In this document: piece by piece, positions 32,443 through 41,081 of the stretch
Layout of the letters: each line of letters starts with the position of its first letter
Numbering within the stretch: position 1 is the stretch's first letter
Origin: Myxococcota bacterium
GTDB lineage: Bacteria > Myxococcota_A > UBA796 > CAJQPC01
Direction: 5' to 3'
Length of the DNA stretch: 64,000 nucleotides
Assembly (NCBI GenBank): GCA_036229005.1
Contig: JAZAMN010000020.1
Location: 160,001-224,000 of the forward strand
Made by a program: the position numbers and the translations under genes
Notes under the pieces: generated by a model
The model's input: only the letters and a program-made list of their open reading frames with translations
Told to the model about the DNA's origin: nothing
Database searches by the model: none

Positions 32443-34890
32443 TCAGCGCAGCGCGATCCCCAACACGTCGGCGAGCACCCCCGCCGCCGTCACGTCGCCG
32501 CCCGCGCCCGGCCCCTGGACCACCAGCGGCTGCCGCGGGTAGCGCCGGGTCGTGAAGGCCACCAGCGAAGCCGCCCCCCGCAGCGCAAAGGCCGGATGGG
32601 ACTCCTCCACGAACACAGGGCCCACCACCAGGCTGGGCTGCGGCTCCAGCTCCACCGTGGCCAGGTAGCGCAGCCGCCGACCCTGCTTGGCCTCCAGCTC
32701 GATGCGGGCTCGCAGCTCCGCCCCAAACTCGCCCAGCGCCCCCAGGAACTCCTGGGGTCCCTCGATCTCCAGCAGCGCCTGGGGCACCAGCGGCTCCACC
32801 TGCACATCGCACAGTTCCAGGCGCAGCCCCAGCTCCCGGGCCAGGATCAGCGCCTTCCGCGCCGCGTCCGTGCCCGCCAGGTCCTCCTGCGGCCGCGGCT
32901 CCGTGAAGCCCCGCTCCATGGCGAGGCCCACCGCCTCATCCAGCGCCATGCCCCCACTCAGCGCATCACACAGAAAGCCCAGCGTCCCGGACAGCGAACC
33001 CTGGATCCGGGTCACCCGATCCCCGGTGCGCAACAGATCCTGCAGCGTGGAGATCACCGGCAGCGCAGCCCCCACCGTGGTCTCGTAGCTCCAGCTCCGG
33101 TGCGCCTCCGCCCGCGCTGCCCGCAGCCGGTCCACCGTCCCCAGCGGCAGGGTCAGCGGCTTCTTGTTCGCACCGACCACGTGGATGCCCCGGCTCCAGG
33201 CCGCCTCATACAGACCCGCCAGCGCGCCAGATGCCGTACAGTCCACCAGCACCGGCTCGTGCAGCCCCGCCAGCCAGTCCAGCACAGACTCCGTCACGGG
33301 TCCCCAGGGGCCCTCCGTCTGCTCGCCGCCCTCCAGCAGAGCTGACCAGTCCTCCAGAGCCAGGCCCCGAGAGTCTGTGACGACCCGCCTTCGGTCCGCG
33401 AGCCCCACCACCCGGAGCTCCAGTCCGTGCTCCTTCTCCAGCACCGGGGCCTGTTCGTGAATCTGTGTGAGCATCGCACTCCCCACGGTCCCCTTCCCCA
33501 GCACCAGCAGGCTCGCGCGTCTGTGCGCCAGGTGAAACGCATCGTGCACCCGCCGCACCGCCTGCGGCAGCGACTCTTGGCGCACCACACACGAGATCGA
33601 CCGCGCCGACGCCGACTGCCCGATCGCCAGCACGTTGATGCCCAGGCTCCCCAGCGCCGAGAACAGACGGCCCGCCACGTTGGGCGTGCGCCCCATCGCC
33701 TCGGCCACCAGGGTCAGCAGCGCCACCCCACCGTGCACCTTGGGTTCTTTGAGCTCCCCCCGCGCCAGCTCCCCCGCGAAGGCCTCTGTGATGGCCTTGA
33801 GCACCGCCTGCTGGTTCTGTGCGGGGACCACCACGCTCATGGCCTGCCCGTGCGCCGAGTGGGTGGCCAACCACAGTTGATCCACGACGGGGTCGAGGGC
33901 TCTGTGCAGTCGCTCAGCCAGCGGCCCACCGCGAGACACCGTCTGTAGCTGGAGATCGATCAGGATCTGCCCCTCAAGCGAGGTCACCGAGGTCGCGTTG
34001 CGCTCGTCGTTGCTGCCCAGCGGCGTGATCCAGGTCCCGGGGGCGTCGGGTGCGTCCAGGTTGCGGATCCACAGCGAGATGCCGTCCTGACGCAGCGGCA
34101 GCATGGTGCGTCGGTGCAGCACCCGCGCCCCGAAGGTGGCCAGCTCCAGCGCCTCATCGTAGGAGAGCTGCTCCAGCGGCCGGGCGTCGTCGACCAGCTT
34201 GGGATCGGCGCTCAGCACGCCGTCCACGTCCGTCCAGATCTGTACCTGATCCGCGCCCAGCCCCTGCGCCAGGAGGGTCGCGCTGTAGTCCGATCCATTG
34301 CGGCCCAGGGTGGCGGTGCCCCCGCCGCGGCGCTGGGCGATGAAGCCGGTGACCACCGGAATACAGTCTCCCCACCCGGCCTGCAGGGTCCGCAAGCGCT
34401 CAAAGGAGGCATCGAGCTCCACCAGACCCCGGGGACCCTCCACCAGCAGCCAGGTGCGGGCGTCCACGGCCTGGGCTGGCACACCCGACACAGAGAGCGC
34501 GCTGGCCACCACCTGCGAGGCGACCAGCTCGCCGTAGGCGAGGACCCGGTCCCGCACGCCATCGGGGACCTCCCCCAGCAAGCGCACCCCCTCCAGCAGC
34601 GAGCGCAGCTCGCCCCGCAGGATCTCCAGGCGAGCCCCGACTGCGGCCGGCAGCTCGTACTGTGTTGTGTCTCGCGCCAGGGCCTCCAACCCATCTGTGA
34701 CGGCTTCGGAGTCCCCGCGCTGCGCGGCATCCAGGAGCGCGAGCAGAGAGTCTGTGGTGCCTCCGAGCGCGCTGACGACCACTGCGACGGGGGACTGTGT
34801 GGCCTGTTCGCGCACGTGGCCGACCACGCGCTGGACATGGGCCGGGGAGCCCAGCGAGCTCCCCCCGAACTTGAGGACGACATGGCTCAT
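32443..34890 (-). CDS. Bifunctional aspartokinase / homoserine dehydrogenase (ThrA/MetL type)
   Basis: KFGGSS, LGRNGSDYSA, WTDVDGV, ACT domains, GKGTVG, ANKK, YETTVGAALP, GPGAGGDVTA. Confidence 0.93.
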   Translation of the reverse strand: MSHVVLKFGGSSLGSPAHVQRVVGHVREQATQSPVAVVVSALGGTTDSLLALLDAAQRGDSEAVTDGLEALARDTTQYELPAAVGARLEILRGELRSLLEGVRLLGEVPDGVRDRVLAYGELVASQVVASALSVSGVPAQAVDARTWLLVEGPRGLVELDASFERLRTLQAGWGDCIPVVTGFIAQRRGGGTATLGRNGSDYSATLLAQGLGADQVQIWTDVDGVLSADPKLVDDARPLEQLSYDEALELATFGARVLHRRTMLPLRQDGISLWIRNLDAPDAPGTWITPLGSNDERNATSVTSLEGQILIDLQLQTVSRGGPLAERLHRALDPVVDQLWLATHSAHGQAMSVVVPAQNQQAVLKAITEAFAGELARGELKEPKVHGGVALLTLVAEAMGRTPNVAGRLFSALGSLGINVLAIGQSASARSISCVVRQESLPQAVRRVHDAFHLAHRRASLLVLGKGTVGSAMLTQIHEQAPVLEKEHGLELRVVGLADRRRVVTDSRGLALEDWSALLEGGEQTEGPWGPVTESVLDWLAGLHEPVLVDCTASGALAGLYEAAWSRGIHVVGANKKPLTLPLGTVDRLRAARAEAHRSWSYETTVGAALPVISTLQDLLRTGDRVTRIQGSLSGTLGFLCDALSGGMALDEAVGLAMERGFTEPRPQEDLAGTDAARKALILARELGLRLELCDVQVEPLVPQALLEIEGPQEFLGALGEFGAELRARIELEAKQGRRLRYLATVELEPQPSLVVGPVFVEESHPAFALRGAASLVAFTTRRYPRQPLVVQGPGAGGDVTAAGVLADVLGIALR

Positions 34891-35957
34891 GGTGTGGTCC
34901 CTCCCAGGACCCGGGCGAAGATGGGGCCGAGCTGGCCCCACTCCAGAAGGAAGGCGTCGTGCCCGTGAGGGCTGGCGAGTTCGTGGTAGACGGCGCCGGG
35001 GATGCGGGCCGCCAGGGCCTGGACCGCAGCGGCCGGAAAGAGCTGGTCTGTGTCGATTCCGACCAGGTGTGTGTGAGGCAGCCGCGCCAGGCCCCAGGGC
35101 TCTGTTGGCCTCCAGGACTCCCCCGGATCCCGAGGGGGCCGCCGCTCGATGTCGTGGTGGTCCATCGCGTCCAACTGACACAGATAGGCGCGGGGGTCGA
35201 AGCGGTCGGCCAGCTTGCGGCCCTGGTGCTGCAGGTAGGTCTGTAGCTTGTAGGGTTGCACCGCGCTCCAGTCGGCGCAGGTCTGTGCGCGCCCCTGCCG
35301 GAGCTCCAGGCCGGGGTTGGCCCGGTAGCTCAGGTGGGCAAGCTGCCGGGCGCGCTCCAGTCCGTGTTCGTGGTCGGCCAGGATGCACTGGCGGCCGACG
35401 TGGTTCCAGCCCATCACCCACGGACTCGTGCGCTCCTGGGCCGCCAGGACCAGCAGGCGCCCGATACGCTCAGGGGCCAGCACACCCAGACACAGAGCGA
35501 TCATGCCCCCCAGCGAGCCCCCGGCGCAGAGCTCCAGGCGCGCCACGCCCAGGCGGTCCAGGGCCAGGAGCAGGGCGCGCGCCTGGTCCCAGGGGGTGAT
35601 GGGCGCGGGCAGCCAGTCCTCGTCTGTGGGAGGGAGCCCCTGGGTGCCCGCCGGGGCCCGGACACCCGGGACCTGTGCCAGGCGGGGGAAGCCTTGGGTC
35701 CGGGGCCCGGTGGAGCCATAGCAGGATCCCAGGTTGTTGAAACACAGAGTGCGGAAGCGCCCCGTGTCCACCTCCTTCCCCGGCCCCACGACCCCAGACC
35801 ACCACTGCTGGGGTCTGTGGTCGCCGGTCAGAGCGTGGATCACCAGCACCACGGGCGCATCCGCGGGCCCAAGGTCGCTCAGCGCCAGCGCCACATTGGG
35901 CAACTGTACGCCGCACTCCAGGGTCAGCGGCCCCAGCTCCAGCACAGACTCGCTCAC
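34887..35957 (-). CDS. metX: Homoserine O-acetyltransferase (alpha/beta hydrolase)
   Basis: HALTGD, NNLGSCYGSTGP, GGSLGGM, YLQHQGRKLADRFD, HGHDAFL; GTG overlaps metY stop. Confidence 0.92.
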   Translation of the reverse strand: MSESVLELGPLTLECGVQLPNVALALSDLGPADAPVVLVIHALTGDHRPQQWWSGVVGPGKEVDTGRFRTLCFNNLGSCYGSTGPRTQGFPRLAQVPGVRAPAGTQGLPPTDEDWLPAPITPWDQARALLLALDRLGVARLELCAGGSLGGMIALCLGVLAPERIGRLLVLAAQERTSPWVMGWNHVGRQCILADHEHGLERARQLAHLSYRANPGLELRQGRAQTCADWSAVQPYKLQTYLQHQGRKLADRFDPRAYLCQLDAMDHHDIERRPPRDPGESWRPTEPWGLARLPHTHLVGIDTDQLFPAAAVQALAARIPGAVYHELASPHGHDAFLLEWGQLGPIFARVLGGTTP

Positions 35958-37231
35958 AGACCAGCCAGCGCCTGATCCAGGTCGGCGACCAGGTCCTCGA
36001 TGTGCTCCAGCCCCACGGAGAGCCGCAACAGATCCTGGGTGACCCCCGTGCTCTCCTGCTGCTCGGGGGTGAGCTGCTGGTGGGTGGTGGACGCGGGGTG
36101 GATGATCAGGCTGCGGGTGTCGCCGATGTTGGCCAGCAGCGAGAAGAGCTGGGTGTTGTCCGCGACCTGCCGCCCGGCAGAGAGGCCCCCCTTGACGCCG
36201 AAGGTCAGCAGCCCGCCAAAGCCGCCGGTGAAGTAGCGCTTGGCGGTGGCGTGCCCGGGGTCGCCCTTGAGCCCGGGGTAGCGCACCCATGCGACCTTGG
36301 GGTGCTGCTCCAGCCAGGTGGCCAGGGCCAGGGCGTTGCGGCTGTGGCGCTCGACCCGCAGGTGCAGGGTCTCCAGGCCCTGGATGAATCCGTGTGCGTT
36401 GAAGGGGGAGATGCACGCGCCGAAGTCGCGCAGGCCCTCGATGCGGGCGCGCAGGATGAACGCGAGCGCGCCGAGGTCCTTGAGCTGGAGTCCGTGATAG
36501 CCGGGGTGGGGCTCGGTGAACTCGGGGAACTTGCCGTTGGCCCAGTCGAAGCTGCCGCCGTCCACGATGGCCCCGCCGATGCCGGTTCCGTGGCCGCCGA
36601 TGTACTTGGTGCAGCTATTGACCACGATGTTCGCGCCCACGCTCAGGGGGCGGACCAGCGCGGGGCTGGCGGCGGTGTTGTCCACGATCAGCGGGATCTG
36701 TGCGTCGCGGGCGATGGCCCCGATGGCCTCGAAGTCCGGGGGGATCAGCGAGGGGTTGGGGAGGGACTCCAGGTAGATGGCGCGGGTCTTGGGCGTGATG
36801 GCGTCGGCGAAGGCCTGGGGGTCTGTGTGGTCCACAAAGCGGGTCTGTATGCCCAGGCGGCCCAGGGAGTTTGCCAGCAGGTTGTAGGTGCCCCCGTAGA
36901 CCCCGGTGCCGGAGATCAGCTCGTCTCCGGGGCGCAGGATGCTGAGCAGCGCCAGGGTCTCCGCGGCCTGTCCGCTGGCCAATGCGAGCCCGGCCTGGCC
37001 CTCCTCCAGGGCGGCCAGGCGCTTCTCCAGGACGTCGGCGGTGGGGTTTGTGATGCGGGTGTAGATGGGCCCGGGGTCGCTGAGGGCGAAGCGCGCCGCG
37101 GCGTGCTCGCTGTCCCGGAAGACGTAGGAGGCCGTGTGGTAGATGGGCACCGCGCGGCTGCCGGTGGTGGGGTCGGGGTCGTAGCCCGCGTGCAAGGCCA
37201 GGGTCTGGGGGCGGTAGTCAGGCTTGGACAT
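35954..37231 (-). CDS. metY: O-acetylhomoserine aminocarboxypropyltransferase (sulfhydrylase)
   Basis: YTRITNPT, ASGQAA, VDNT, SCTKYIGGHG, LANIGDTRSLIIHPASTTHQQL. Confidence 0.95.
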   Translation of the reverse strand: MSKPDYRPQTLALHAGYDPDPTTGSRAVPIYHTASYVFRDSEHAAARFALSDPGPIYTRITNPTADVLEKRLAALEEGQAGLALASGQAAETLALLSILRPGDELISGTGVYGGTYNLLANSLGRLGIQTRFVDHTDPQAFADAITPKTRAIYLESLPNPSLIPPDFEAIGAIARDAQIPLIVDNTAASPALVRPLSVGANIVVNSCTKYIGGHGTGIGGAIVDGGSFDWANGKFPEFTEPHPGYHGLQLKDLGALAFILRARIEGLRDFGACISPFNAHGFIQGLETLHLRVERHSRNALALATWLEQHPKVAWVRYPGLKGDPGHATAKRYFTGGFGGLLTFGVKGGLSAGRQVADNTQLFSLLANIGDTRSLIIHPASTTHQQLTPEQQESTGVTQDLLRLSVGLEHIEDLVADLDQALAGL

Positions 37232-37278
37232 GGGGGAGCTCCTGGGAGGTTTGTGTGAGGTTTAGGGTGGAGACAGAG

Positions 37279-37454
37279 CGGTCCGCCCCCCACTTCTGTG
37301 TGGGGTCTCACGGACCGGACAGCAGCACACACCAGCGCGCGGCGACCGCCGACTCAGGGAGTCGTCACGGAGCAGCCACCCGCGGGCGGGGCTTGGAGGC
37401 GCGTCTTGTTGTGGGGGTTACGGCTGGTGTGGCGAGACGGGCGCGCGCACCAGC
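37279..37454 (-). promoter_or_regulatory. Structured leader / candidate attenuator of the met operon
   Basis: Segments 37448-37454 and 37328-37336 both complement 37423-37431; hairpin 37279-37317; C-rich, G-poor tracts. Confidence 0.6.
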
Positions 37455-37531
37455 TAGGACATGCAGACACACATCGCCATGGCACCCAGACAGGGCGCGC
37501 AAGCTGCGGCGATGTGCATGTTGGTCTTCAC
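37454..37531 (-). CDS. Met/Cys-rich leader peptide MKTNMHIAAACAPCLGAMAMCVCMS
   Basis: Hand translation GTG 37531 to TAG 37454; 4 internal Met and 4 Cys codons; alternative start ATG 37519. Confidence 0.75.
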   Translation of the reverse strand: MKTNMHIAAACAPCLGAMAMCVCMS

Positions 37532-37538
37532 GTTGAAG

Positions 37539-37568
37539 AAAATACGGCGCACACCCCTCGCTGCGCAA
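37539..37568 (-). promoter_or_regulatory. Sigma70-type promoter TTGCGC-N18-TATTTT, 7 nt before the leader GTG
   Basis: -35 at 37563-37568, -10 at 37539-37544. Confidence 0.55.
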
Positions 37569-37578
37569 GAGCCAGGCC

Positions 37579-37594
37579 TGTGACAGTTGCCACA
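37579..37594. promoter_or_regulatory. CRP/FNR-like site TGTGA-N6-CCACA upstream of the met promoter
   Basis: One mismatch from TGTGA-N6-TCACA, just upstream of the -35 box. Confidence 0.3.
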
Positions 37595-37662
37595 GCCTCC
37601 AGATTCCAGTTGTTGAACCAAGACTCTGGAGCACTGAACTTTCTTCGGTTCGCGACGATTCG

Positions 37663-39357
37663 CTATTCCGGACGCGCCAACACCCGCTGATCGCCCCCCG
37701 AGCTCCCATCCAGCTCCAGCTCGGAGATCAGCACCGGCGGCACCGCCCAGGCGCCGGGCAGGCCGCCCACAGGTCCGATGTAGAAGCGCTCGCTGCCTGG
37801 GGGGCCGTCCATCACGCCCACGTAGTCGGCGGTCTCCCCCGCCATCACCGCATCCCGCAGCACGCGGCGGTCCACGCCGGAGAACTGCAGGCCGCGCACG
37901 GGCTGCTGGGTGCCGTCCGGCAGGAGCAGGTAGGCCTCGTAGGGGCGAGTGAGGCCGGCGCCGGGGCCGTCCCCCATGAAGGTGACGTCGAAGTCCTCGG
38001 TCACGGCGGGGGGCTCGATGCGCCGGATCACCAGCAGGCCCTCGTTGCCGGTCTGCTGGGCCATCCGCAGGCCCTTGCGCTCCAGGGCCTTGAGGCGGCG
38101 GCTGCGCTTGGGCTCCACCCGCACGTTGGAGGGCATGGCCTCGCGGCGGCTGCTGCCCAGGCCCCGGCCGTGGCCGGTGCTCTCCCCGTCCACATCCGCG
38201 GGGATGCGGCTCATCAGGACCCGGCGCACGACGCCGTCCTCAACGAGCTCCACCTCCTGGCCGGGGACGCCTTCGTGGTCGTAGGTGTAGCGGCCGGCGG
38301 CGCCGGGGGTGTCGGGGGTGTCCACCACGCGCCAGCCGGCGGGCATCAAGCGGCGGCCGACCCGGGCGGTGGCGCGGGCGATGGGGGCCTCGCCGAACAT
38401 GCCGCGGCCCTCGGCCTCGGGGGGCGTGCCCACGAACTCGGCTGCGGCGAGCTGACGGTAGAGCTCGACGGAGGCGGCATCATCAAAGAGCACTGGTCCC
38501 AGGTACTCCTTGAGCACAGGGGCGTCCTCCAACGCCACGAGCCAGTCGGCCATCTCGCGCACCTCGGCCTCCATCTGTTCGATGGGGGGCAGCTCGCCTG
38601 CGTGGCGGGCGACCCAGGACCGGCCGTTGCGCAGCCGGCTGCCGTCGGAGTGCTTGTAGACCGCCTCCACCCGGATCACGACGTAGCCCGTCTCGGTGGC
38701 GAGCTTGGTGCCCTCGGAGTTCACCAGGAGGCGGACGCCCTGCCAGTCGCTGCCGGCGGCCACCCCCGACTCGAGCTGGGGGTACTCGGCCAGCACCCCG
38801 CTGAGGTGGGTGATGCGCTCCTCCAGTCCGGGGGCGTCGATGGTAAAGGGCTGCGCGTCCAGATCGACCGTGGGCGTCACGGGGTACATCGCGGGGGGCT
38901 TCTCCTCGCTCTGGTCGCCGGGGGGCAGCTCAGCCACCTTGCGGGAGAGCTGCTCGACGGACTGCTTGTAGGCGATGTCCGTGGCCAGCCAGAGCTCGCG
39001 GCCCAGGGCCACGGGATCGTCTTCGTGAGGCAGGTGGGCGCTGAGCACCCCGCCGGGCTCGCCGAAGGCGGCGAAGTTGGCGGAGTCGAAGCTGGAGTCT
39101 CCAGCCCGGGACTCCACCCGCAGGACGCGGTGGGGGCGCGTCTCCCGCGCCATGACCGCCCCAAAGTCGGCGTACACCGTGGTGACCTCGCCGTCTACGA
39201 CCTCGTAGGACAGCCACCAGGGGGGCGACTCGTCCGGGAGGTGCAGCTCAGATGTGGCGCGGGCCAGCTCCTCCTCCATCACCCCCAACAGAAGCTGCTG
39301 GGACTCGGCGGTCGGGGGCGCGGCCAGGGCGGACAGGGAGAGCAGCAGGGGGATCAT
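37663..39357 (-). CDS. TldE/PmbA-like subunit with signal peptide
   Basis: YLGPVLFD, YDHEGVPGQEVELVEDG, STGHGR, PPVLISELE; no HExxxH; ATG 39357 overlaps tldD-like stop. Confidence 0.85.
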   Translation of the reverse strand: MIPLLLSLSALAAPPTAESQQLLLGVMEEELARATSELHLPDESPPWWLSYEVVDGEVTTVYADFGAVMARETRPHRVLRVESRAGDSSFDSANFAAFGEPGGVLSAHLPHEDDPVALGRELWLATDIAYKQSVEQLSRKVAELPPGDQSEEKPPAMYPVTPTVDLDAQPFTIDAPGLEERITHLSGVLAEYPQLESGVAAGSDWQGVRLLVNSEGTKLATETGYVVIRVEAVYKHSDGSRLRNGRSWVARHAGELPPIEQMEAEVREMADWLVALEDAPVLKEYLGPVLFDDAASVELYRQLAAAEFVGTPPEAEGRGMFGEAPIARATARVGRRLMPAGWRVVDTPDTPGAAGRYTYDHEGVPGQEVELVEDGVVRRVLMSRIPADVDGESTGHGRGLGSSRREAMPSNVRVEPKRSRRLKALERKGLRMAQQTGNEGLLVIRRIEPPAVTEDFDVTFMGDGPGAGLTRPYEAYLLLPDGTQQPVRGLQFSGVDRRVLRDAVMAGETADYVGVMDGPPGSERFYIGPVGGLPGAWAVPPVLISELELDGSSGGDQRVLARPE

Positions 39358-41081
39358 GCGGACTCCCGGGTGTTCAGAGCGGCGGGGCGGTCGGCGGCGG
39401 ACTGGGGCGCCTCGGGCGGGGGCAGCAGCGGCGGTCGGTCGTTCTCCTTCTCCTTGCGCTGCACCTCGATCTCGTTGAGCAGCAGGCTGGGTGCGACCGC
39501 GGAGACGGGGACCCAGCCGGACTCTGCGCCGCACACGCCGTTGAACACCGCGGGGTCGTCGGCGGCGGCCTCGATGCGGGAGAAGGTGGTCAGGGGGGTG
39601 CCGATGAAGTCGCCTCCGCGCACCAGCTCGTCGGGGCGGCCGTCGGGGTAGACCTTCCAGACGCTGACGGGGCGCACGTTGAAGGAGTTGGGGGTGACGC
39701 GTCCGGTCAAGGTGAACCCGCCGGTGATGTCATCCACGACCAGGCCATAGGGCTTGCCCTGCTCCTGGATCTCGGCGATCAGCATCTCCCGGAGCTCGGC
39801 GTAGGAGACGGTCTCGTGGGCCTCCACGATCAGGTTCCCCTGGCGCGCGACGATGGCGTTGCCGGGCTGGCGGCGGCCGTGGCCGTTGGAGTGGTCGAAG
39901 CCCTCGATGGGGGCCCGGGACATCAGGAAGCCCTGGAGCTCTCCGTGGTCGATCAGCGACACGCGCTGCGCGGGCACGCCCTCGTCGTCGTAGGGGTAGA
40001 AGCCGTTGAGGTCCACGCCCGCCAGGCTCGCGGTGGTGGGGTCGTCATAGACCGACAGGAACTCAGGAAGAACCTGCTCTCCCACCATGTCGGTGAAGGT
40101 CTGTCCCTCGTCCTCGTCCTTCTGGCGGTGGCCCTCGATGCGGTGGCCGAAGATCTCGTGGAAGAACACCCCGGCGGCGCGGCCGCGCAGGATGGCGGGG
40201 CCGGTGTAGGGCTCCAGCAGGGGGGCGTTCCGCAGGTCGGTCACGCGCTGTCCCGCCGCGCGCGCCATCTCTTGGACCGCGGCCGGGTCGGGCAGGCCAT
40301 CTTCCGAGGAGGCGTCCACGTAGTCGTAGACCGAGAGCTGGGCGCCGTCCTCGGCCACCGACATGGCGTAGACGCTGACCCGGTAGCGCACCCGGCTGTG
40401 CTGGATGCGGGTGCCCTCGCTGTTGACCACGACGAAGTCCTGGAGCTCGGCGTGCAGCTCGACCCCGGACTGGTGGACCTCGGGGTACTCCAGGAAGACC
40501 GCGCTCACCTCGCGCAGGGTGCCCTCCCAGGCGGGGTCGACGGCCAGCGCGCCCTGGGGCCGCAGATCCACGACGGGGTCGGCGGGGGAGAAGTCATCGG
40601 AGCTGTCCTCTCGCTCCACCTTGACCGCCTGATTGGCGCGCACCTTGGTCATGCGGCGCACAGCCTGCTGGTAGGCGTCGTCCAGCTCCCGCCATAGGAT
40701 GATCTCCGCGGCGTCCAGGGTGGCCTGGTCCTCCCCCAGCGGCAGGCGCACCAGGCTGCGGGCTTCCTCGGAGAACCAGCCGGCGTCCAGCAGCTTGTGG
40801 GTGTTGTCGAGCTGGTGGCTGCCCACGCGGATGTCGAGATCGGCGACCCGGCTGTCTCGGATGGAGCTGGAGTGCAGCGCCCCGTTCACCGCGGCGATCC
40901 GCTCGGTGTGGGTGTCGGTGATCCCGATCGCCAGGTGATAGGGCGCCTCGTCCTGGTCGGAGAGGGCCTCCATCGTGTGCGCCACCATGGCCTCGGCCAG
41001 GGTGAGCATCGGCGAGGCGGCGGCCGGGGGGGCGTCGTCTCCGGCGCTCGCGGTGAGAGCGGAGAGCAGCAGCAGCGTCAT
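39354..41081 (-). CDS. TldD-like metalloprotease with signal peptide
   Basis: GVFFHEIFGHRIEG, YDDEGVP, SNGHGR, ARQGNL, CGAESGWVPV. Confidence 0.9.
   Translation of the reverse strand: MTLLLLSALTASAGDDAPPAAASPMLTLAEAMVAHTMEALSDQDEAPYHLAIGITDTHTERIAAVNGALHSSSIRDSRVADLDIRVGSHQLDNTHKLLDAGWFSEEARSLVRLPLGEDQATLDAAEIILWRELDDAYQQAVRRMTKVRANQAVKVEREDSSDDFSPADPVVDLRPQGALAVDPAWEGTLREVSAVFLEYPEVHQSGVELHAELQDFVVVNSEGTRIQHSRVRYRVSVYAMSVAEDGAQLSVYDYVDASSEDGLPDPAAVQEMARAAGQRVTDLRNAPLLEPYTGPAILRGRAAGVFFHEIFGHRIEGHRQKDEDEGQTFTDMVGEQVLPEFLSVYDDPTTASLAGVDLNGFYPYDDEGVPAQRVSLIDHGELQGFLMSRAPIEGFDHSNGHGRRQPGNAIVARQGNLIVEAHETVSYAELREMLIAEIQEQGKPYGLVVDDITGGFTLTGRVTPNSFNVRPVSVWKVYPDGRPDELVRGGDFIGTPLTTFSRIEAAADDPAVFNGVCGAESGWVPVSAVAPSLLLNEIEVQRKEKENDRPPLLPPPEAPQSAADRPAALNTRESA

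Follow-up and report, generated by a model that had tools for sequence, protein, structure and literature searches.

The window, i.e., the whole stretch of 64,000 nucleotides analysed here from a genome of the phylum Myxococcota (G000), carries on its minus strand a metY gene encoding an O-acetylhomoserine sulfhydrylase (35954..37231; TIGR01326, 611 bits against a cut-off of 495) preceded by the Shine-Dalgarno sequence AGGAG (37239..37243, minus strand), then a metX-like homoserine O-acyltransferase gene (34887..35957, minus strand; MetX is the best family, E 3e-64, below its cut-off) and a thrA-type aspartate kinase/homoserine dehydrogenase gene (32443..34890, minus strand; NF006959, 726.5 bits against a cut-off of 726). 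An initial sequence-only reading of the window had named this a metY-metX-AK/HSDH operon, which NCBIfam bears out, with metY above the cut-off, thrA at it and MetX under it. Two adjacent long genes for TldD/PmbA-like metalloproteases (37663-41081, minus strand) lie directly 5' of the met promoter. Four RNA runs (contigs only) contain short pieces of metY and its neighbours and nothing of the leader. Homocysteine, the product of MetY, feeds methionine and, via cystathionine beta-synthase (CBS) and lyase, also cysteine. In G000, a CBS-like gene adjoins a gene of the cystathionine lyase/synthase family, and CBS-like genes are also found in genomes G051, G072 and G077, one of the four being over the cut-off and three just under it. 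Because the homocysteine made by MetY can feed both amino acids, sensing the two together would be worthwhile.

Upstream of metY, with 222 nt between its stop codon and the metY ATG, lies a short open reading frame (uORF; 37454..37531, minus strand) of 25 codons plus TAG, with the GTG at 37531 and the end of the TAG at 37454. Its 24 internal codons include 4 Met and 4 Cys, and the peptide ends in MAMCVCMS; sequence, frame, translation, the 8 Met or Cys codons out of 24, the tail and the gap to metY are all as first read. The candidate sensing tract, M A M C V C M (codons 18-24; 37460..37480, minus strand), ends in a Cys-Met pair. Ranked by Met+Cys content, the uORF stands 7th of 55,456 short ORF segments in the whole genome and first of the 31 leaderless intergenic short ORFs, and when 2,565 intergenic short ORFs were screened for bias towards any amino acid, it came 5th. 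None of 13 leader peptides searched matched a family in Pfam or NCBIfam, and 8 leader peptides were absent from the protein collection searched.

The uORF is preceded by a -35-like hexamer, TTGCGC (37563..37568, minus strand), and, after an 18-nt spacer, by a -10-like hexamer, TATTTT (37539..37544, minus strand), located 7 nt 5' of the GTG, in agreement with the promoter first proposed. The accompanying suggestion that this geometry is that of other apparently leaderless genes of the genome also held when TAnnnT hexamers were counted before the starts of 2,996 predicted operon-head genes (from our own rough gene calls), with 164 at a gap of 6 nt and 42 at a gap of 7 nt, versus only 0-8 at gaps of 0-5 and 9-14 nt. 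Because these counts peak at 6 and 7 nt, leaderless genes appear to be common in this genome, with the 7-nt gap as the second mode. The frame of the uORF stays open further 5', with an in-frame GTG at -21 and TTG at -90, and its start is hence deduced from the promoter geometry; transcription would begin at or next to the GTG, i.e., the transcript would be leaderless. A strict promoter scan called 0 sites at the uORF promoter; the same scan reported one terminator-like hairpin in the promoter spacer (37567-37548, minus strand; shuffle mean of 0.2). As this hairpin sits over the spacer, TATTTT may at the same time serve the upstream tldD-like genes as a U-tract. Approximately 55 nt 5' of the presumed start, an imperfect palindrome, TGTGG-N6-TCACA (37594-37579, minus strand), resembles a box of the CRP/FNR type, possibly a second control layer.

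Searched with Rfam to E 10, the region 36500-38500 returned four matches, all far below the gathering score and none of them a Met/Cys element. No Rfam model of a SAM riboswitch or T-box matched in the leader and SAM-I had no match in the genome, which upholds the initial view that no riboswitch or T-box core is present.

Conserved leaders and a hairpin in fixed register

With presence of MetY defined as E 1e-90 or better, 12 of the 154 genomes of the order qualify. In the window's own family, 0 of the 21 other genomes hold MetY at this threshold, and a metY orthologue is absent from the 40 nearest relatives (best match at 40-49% identity); with no metY in its own family, conservation had to come from another one. 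The operon looks to have been acquired from, or shared with, family f3. A class-wide search for further members added none.

Of the 12 genomes with metY, seven (G000, G051, G072, G074, G075, G077 and G080) have a Cys/Met-rich uORF ahead of this gene, and the comparison of homologous metY leaders proposed along with the first reading returned the same leaderless geometry in these seven. The homologues count 27-41 codons, for 25 in the window. Though their lengths run from 25 to 41 codons, the start codon of all seven uORFs shares the frame of the tract and follows a -10-like box at a distance of 6-7 nt; this box is of the TAnnnT type in 6 of the 7 leaders and GAAGGT in the seventh, and a TT-starting hexamer is found 17-18 nt 5' of it in 4 of the 7. 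At least 6 Met/Cys within 15 codons occur at 6/12 loci on the sense strand versus 0/12 on the antisense strand, dinucleotide shuffles reaching 5 in 2.9%. At least two consecutive Cys codons are found in the other six homologues and none in the window uORF. All seven uORFs precede metY, then metX where the contig reaches, and thrA follows in the 5 relatives checked on longer stretches. From uORF stop to metY start, the distances are 222, 142, 132, 155, 139, 200 and 138 nt and share no frame, on which grounds read-through or frameshift from the uORF into metY was rejected.

At the end of the uORF, the leader RNA is predicted to form a hairpin, P1 (37423..37454, minus strand), in which GCTGGTG (37454-37448) pairs with CACCAGC (37429-37423) and which begins at the G of the stop codon. 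Exactly 5 nt separate the last Met codon from the GCTG of the 5' arm in all seven leaders, this last Met being preceded by Cys in six and by Met in the seventh; the position of the stop codon shifts by up to 4 codons, and 3 uORFs continue through P1 for another four codons. P1 has 7 or more contiguous pairs in 7/7 leaders, and the GCTG/CAGC pairs are invariant. In an alignment of six leaders (without G080, whose stem is longer), all 41 cells are paired and 3 of the 7 pairs are altered on both sides, a degree of compensatory change equalled by 1 in 500 shuffles, in a control that ignores kinship. An RNA covariance model run over 151 genomes found the six training leaders, all at metY, and no other site in G000; two weak matches (G074:C49 and G080:C309) were discarded for want of a Met/Cys uORF. 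When metagenomes were scanned for the stop-P1-linker pattern, none of the 21 matches lay near metY, metX or thrA; a looser pattern matched 162 of 182 genomes across the class and was uninformative. Judged by comparison, P1 is a conserved element that the sequence-only reading had overlooked. A possible second pairing, P2 (37402..37439, minus strand), either a pseudoknot or an alternative helix, would join the P1 loop (37439-37435) to a downstream strand (37406-37402): it reaches 7-9 bp in 5 of the 7 homologues, with the partner strand 15-21 nt downstream, and in G000 and G080 the loop finds no downstream match longer than 5 bp, which is not above shuffles.

The uORF is absent from the other 5 of the 12 metY loci (G043, G081, G041, G148 and G151), among which is the closest MetY (G043, 78%). 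A Cys-rich ORF 494-320 nt 5' of the G043 metY (score 5) was left out of the count, as neither the promoter geometry nor P1 is present there. In a fast MetY tree of 65 rows (thorough search incomplete), the 7 uORF rows fall within one moderately supported branch of ten, together with 3 uORF-less rows; a MetY from the same phylum groups as sister to one of Kofleriaceae, which, for a mobile gene, is weak evidence that the phylum is Myxococcota. The seven leaders are kin and therefore count as one origin, those of G074 and G075 being near copies. In a 401-genome sample of the phylum, 31 genomes outside the order hold a strong MetY, and a comparable ORF was seen at 1 of the 26 loci examined among them. 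This locus (L147, genome G324, from another class of the phylum) has an ORF of 27 codons, among them 4 Cys and 2 internal Met codons, 250-166 nt before metY-metX, and no P1 was seen there. Comparison across the order supports the uORF, the promoter geometry, the fixed register from Met to P1 and the pairing of P1 as predicted from sequence, and the observation of a conserved, apparently leaderless Met/Cys leader, with its hairpin in fixed register, is confirmed as real.

Leader peptides at other metY loci and in the same genome

A GTDB scan for metY was considered at the best 80 of 524 confirmed loci, mostly from Flavobacteriaceae. Among these 80, a Met/Cys-rich uORF precedes metY at 18 loci in sense versus 0/80 in antisense orientation, and the 18 loci hold 32 such ORFs, 14 of them having two in tandem. 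All 32 are followed by a hairpin and U-tract 41-61 nt past the stop, a figure with no shuffled control behind it, and an antiterminator switch is predicted for 18 of the 32, in which a ribosome stalled in the tract would let the leader capture the 5' arm of the terminator, and a ribosome at the stop would release that arm. In Rfam scans of the same set, a riboswitch between uORF leader and metY was found at 0/17 uORF loci (17 of the 18 scanned), and SAM-I directly before metY at 14 of 15 uORF-less loci (15 of the 62 others scanned, the fifteenth being cut short). Met/Cys leaders and SAM-I riboswitches alternate at metY in Flavobacteriaceae. The loci with a Met/Cys leader and terminator (L044, L046, L052, L054, L083, L092, L098, L104, L108, L109, L111, L112, L113, L116 and L118-L121) belong to the genera Flavobacterium, Gillisia, Salinimicrobium, Christiangramia, Salegentibacter and Antarcticibacterium, and their leaders, single or tandem, lie up to 900 nt before metY. 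No sequence is visibly shared between the Flavobacteriaceae leaders and that of the window, and the likeness is therefore functional.

Within G000 itself, the second-ranked leaderless ORF is a His-rich leader before hisG. This His leader (G000:C21:23748-23816, plus strand; locus L219) has 22 codons, 6 of them His, a terminator made of a hairpin and U-tract, and a matching antiterminator-like arm in its coding part. A Cys-rich leader ORF (G000:C47:7760-7864, minus strand; locus L221) stands before an operon of cysM, a JAB/ThiS-like fusion (by eye) and a moeZ-like gene; it is kept in 4/4 genomes of the genus, where a hairpin spans the stop codon, and genome G152 has a leaderless Cys leader whose hairpin begins at the stop (homologues L223-L225 and L233). 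Overall, the Cys leader was found at 5 of the 30 cysM loci examined, from 78 genomes with the gene, and folding of the cysM leaders found no Shine-Dalgarno switch.

Proposed attenuation and its alternatives

The initial proposal of a candidate sulfur-amino-acid attenuator gains support from the 7/12 homologous leaders with the same geometry and from the analogous leaders at 18/80 other metY loci (best 80 of 524). Taken as a whole, we hold a leaderless leader-peptide attenuator of metY-metX-thrA to be probable; sensing by ribosome stalling is likely, and the joint sensing of Met and Cys is plausible. In this mechanism, a ribosome would load directly on a leaderless transcript starting at or next to the GTG. 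With both Met-tRNA and Cys-tRNA charged, it would cross the Cys/Met tract, unwind P1, terminate and leave, and transcription along the ribosome-free C-rich leader would stop before metY, most likely via Rho. With either tRNA uncharged, the ribosome would dwell on the tract against P1, beside the C-rich stretch, and the polymerase would read on. With the last Met codon in the A site, ribosome geometry would place P1 at the entry site of the mRNA. In folds with the ribosome placed along the uORF, P1 stays intact while the earlier Cys/Met codons are occupied and is melted on finishing, a result obtained partly by construction. Counting against the proposal, a shortage of methionine could equally delay initiation at the start codon of the uORF.

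Folding of the whole leader is no better than that of shuffles (z -0.95). The minimum-energy fold contains a predicted hairpin within the uORF (37470..37516, minus strand; 37516-37508 with 37478-37470). Constrained folds propose, for this genome only, an alternative partner of the P1 3' arm once the 5' arm is covered (37326..37336, minus strand), which is not conserved among the leaders. Further downstream, a strong distal hairpin (37279..37317, minus strand) is without a U-tract and not conserved, and is not called a terminator.

Regarding the output step, an intrinsic terminator, i.e., a hairpin followed by a U-tract, was found between uORF and metY neither here nor, on inspection, in the six homologues; genome-wide, only 156 of 2,168 predicted operon ends bear such a structure. 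The 70 nt after the uORF stop contain 36 C versus 15 G, a skew equalled by 11 of 603 comparable stretches at the matched place and by 73 of 603 when the best window is taken, and modest by the latter count. The single-stranded C-rich linker after P1 (37407..37422, minus strand) is a candidate part of a Rho loading site. In nested folds, C-rich RNA was not masked in one ribosome state relative to another, the counts of unpaired C differing by at most 6. The rho gene is present in 137/154 genomes of the order (TIGR00767); in G000, it is a 3' fragment at the start of contig C34 (G000:C34:3-185), followed by the two neighbours that it has in relatives too, and among the six other leader genomes it was found in five and not in G072 (97% complete). 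The Rho of this order is very divergent, only 11 of the 137 matches to TIGR00767 passing the cut-off, and its gene often lies at contig ends. Rho-dependent termination is our best guess for the output, with about equal weight for and against it.

The same sensor could instead have a translational output, the position of the ribosome on the uORF deciding the pairing of the metY Shine-Dalgarno sequence, as in mycobacterial Ms5788A. The leader is apparently leaderless, GC-rich and without a U-tract, like Ms5788A in the accessible part of its description (10.1101/834739), the P1 loop carries a CTCC anti-Shine-Dalgarno motif in 4 of the 7 leaders, and in G077 the cost of opening the site is 12.4 kcal/mol ribosome-free versus 9.6-9.9 kcal/mol with a ribosome. 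In G000, however, the cost is 3.8-5.6 kcal/mol and the cheapest state is the ribosome-free one, G072 and G074 are flat (pseudoknots and kinetics being modelled crudely), and the metY Shine-Dalgarno sequence is 130-220 nt distant. With the ribosome at each codon in turn, equilibrium folds of the metY leaders gave no consistent change in opening cost, and such an output appears rather unlikely.

Sensing of cysteine alone, with the terminal Met kept for sequence or structure and not for decoding, stays a reading because of the two homologues with a single internal Met, namely G051 (1 Met, 6 Cys) and G077 (1 Met, 4 Cys); moreover, Cys codons are at least as numerous as Met codons in all seven. Yet the remaining five leaders hold 3-7 internal Met, the Flavobacteriaceae leaders are Met-dominated and the operon under the leader belongs to the methionine pathway, all of which makes this reading an unlikely one. 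Arrest of the ribosome through binding of a metabolite or metal (e.g., SAM, cysteine or copper) to the nascent peptide or to the P1/P2 RNA, in the manner of TnaC, SpeFL or CruR, is quite improbable. A C-terminal tract beside C-rich RNA does resemble the tnaC/speFL geometry as given in the accessible part of PMC12360218, and invariant GCTG/CAGC pairs and a possible pseudoknot would fit a binding RNA, but neither sequence nor length of the peptide is kept beyond its composition and the last Cys-Met, and Rfam has no match. That the ORF is a by-product of a TG-rich leader, untranslated or non-regulatory, is barely credible: six off-target genome segments outscore it for Met+Cys and its Met/Cys codons double as one arm of a predicted hairpin, but the bias is frame-specific in the seven homologues (57 versus 12 and 4 codons in the other frames, a partly circular count), the promoter-adjacent start is in frame in 7/7, and a Met/Cys uORF recurs before metY in another phylum.

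Relation to known systems and significance

In the textbook view, methionine genes are controlled by MetJ/MetR/SahR, SAM riboswitches and T-boxes, and Vitreschak et al. are said to have proposed, in 2004, Met codons in some Pasteurellales thr/asd leaders. In the open full-text literature, no description of a Met or Met/Cys leader peptide was found, subscription papers, notably Vitreschak 2004 and Lopatovskaya 2010, lying outside that search. As far as the accessible parts of the sources go, a Met leader peptide has no match in the supplement of PMC8632094, neither "attenuat" nor "leader peptide" occurs in a survey of methionine regulation in Proteobacteria (PMC4239095), the term methionine is absent from a review on Rho attenuators under uORF control (PMC12360218), and no conserved RNA structure is reported before methionine operons in Actinobacteria (PMC1262725).

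The leader of the window is leader-peptide attenuator-like, but neither a classical terminator nor the Shine-Dalgarno pairing of mycobacteria was found in it. With the classical attenuators (trpL, hisL, thrL, leuL, pheL and ilvL), as described in the accessible parts of 10.1101/834739 and PMC2965389, it shares a short uORF rich in codons for the product, followed by RNA structure that may be set by ribosome position; it differs in being apparently leaderless and without U-tract terminator and antiterminator, whereas the Met/Cys leaders of Flavobacteriaceae show the classical layout. The polycysteine sORFs of the Ms5788A type, belonging to the Cys ribulon (10.1101/834739, in part), have in common a GUG uORF, leaderless by promoter geometry in the window, Cys codons near the 3' end, sulfur genes downstream and no intrinsic terminator. 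These mycobacterial leaders are there described as Cys only and translational, whereas in the window Met is mixed in, the target is metY-metX-thrA, a hairpin lies 5 nt past the last Met and no Shine-Dalgarno pairing was found. Regarding the Rho attenuators controlled by a uORF, i.e., tnaC, speFL, mgtL, corL and cruR (PMC12360218, in part), the uORF is likewise followed by C-rich RNA and hairpins without a U-tract, but these sense free Trp, ornithine, Mg or Cu, and at the leader of the window a role of Rho is putative. Cys-codon leaders have also been predicted before cys/cbs genes in actinobacteria, with no terminator and with Rho proposed (PMC1262725, in part), and before cysS in Rhodobacterales (uORFC-8-2; PMC8632094, in part), both differing from the present leader in being Cys only. 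SAM-I and SAM-II riboswitches of met operons occupy the same position before the same target genes but bind SAM directly.

A broader reading, which we advance tentatively as somewhat short of an even chance, is that several phyla independently evolved Met/Cys leader-peptide attenuation in replacement of SAM riboswitches at metY, and that a new output module arose here, namely a hairpin/pseudoknot 5 nt past the last Met, at the mRNA entry site, which would sharpen Cys-Met stalling and gate Rho. If this holds, it would constitute a ribosome-read methionine sensor, none being found described in the literature searched. It also raises a puzzle, in that a shortage of methionine would be reported by a sensor itself needing methionine to initiate. 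The Flavobacteriaceae versions, in tandem and with textbook terminators, are present in cultured strains. If true, a Met/Cys leader peptide would extend to methionine the set of amino acids sensed through ribosome stalling; charged tRNA would be measured instead of SAM, and metY leaders without a riboswitch would be explained.
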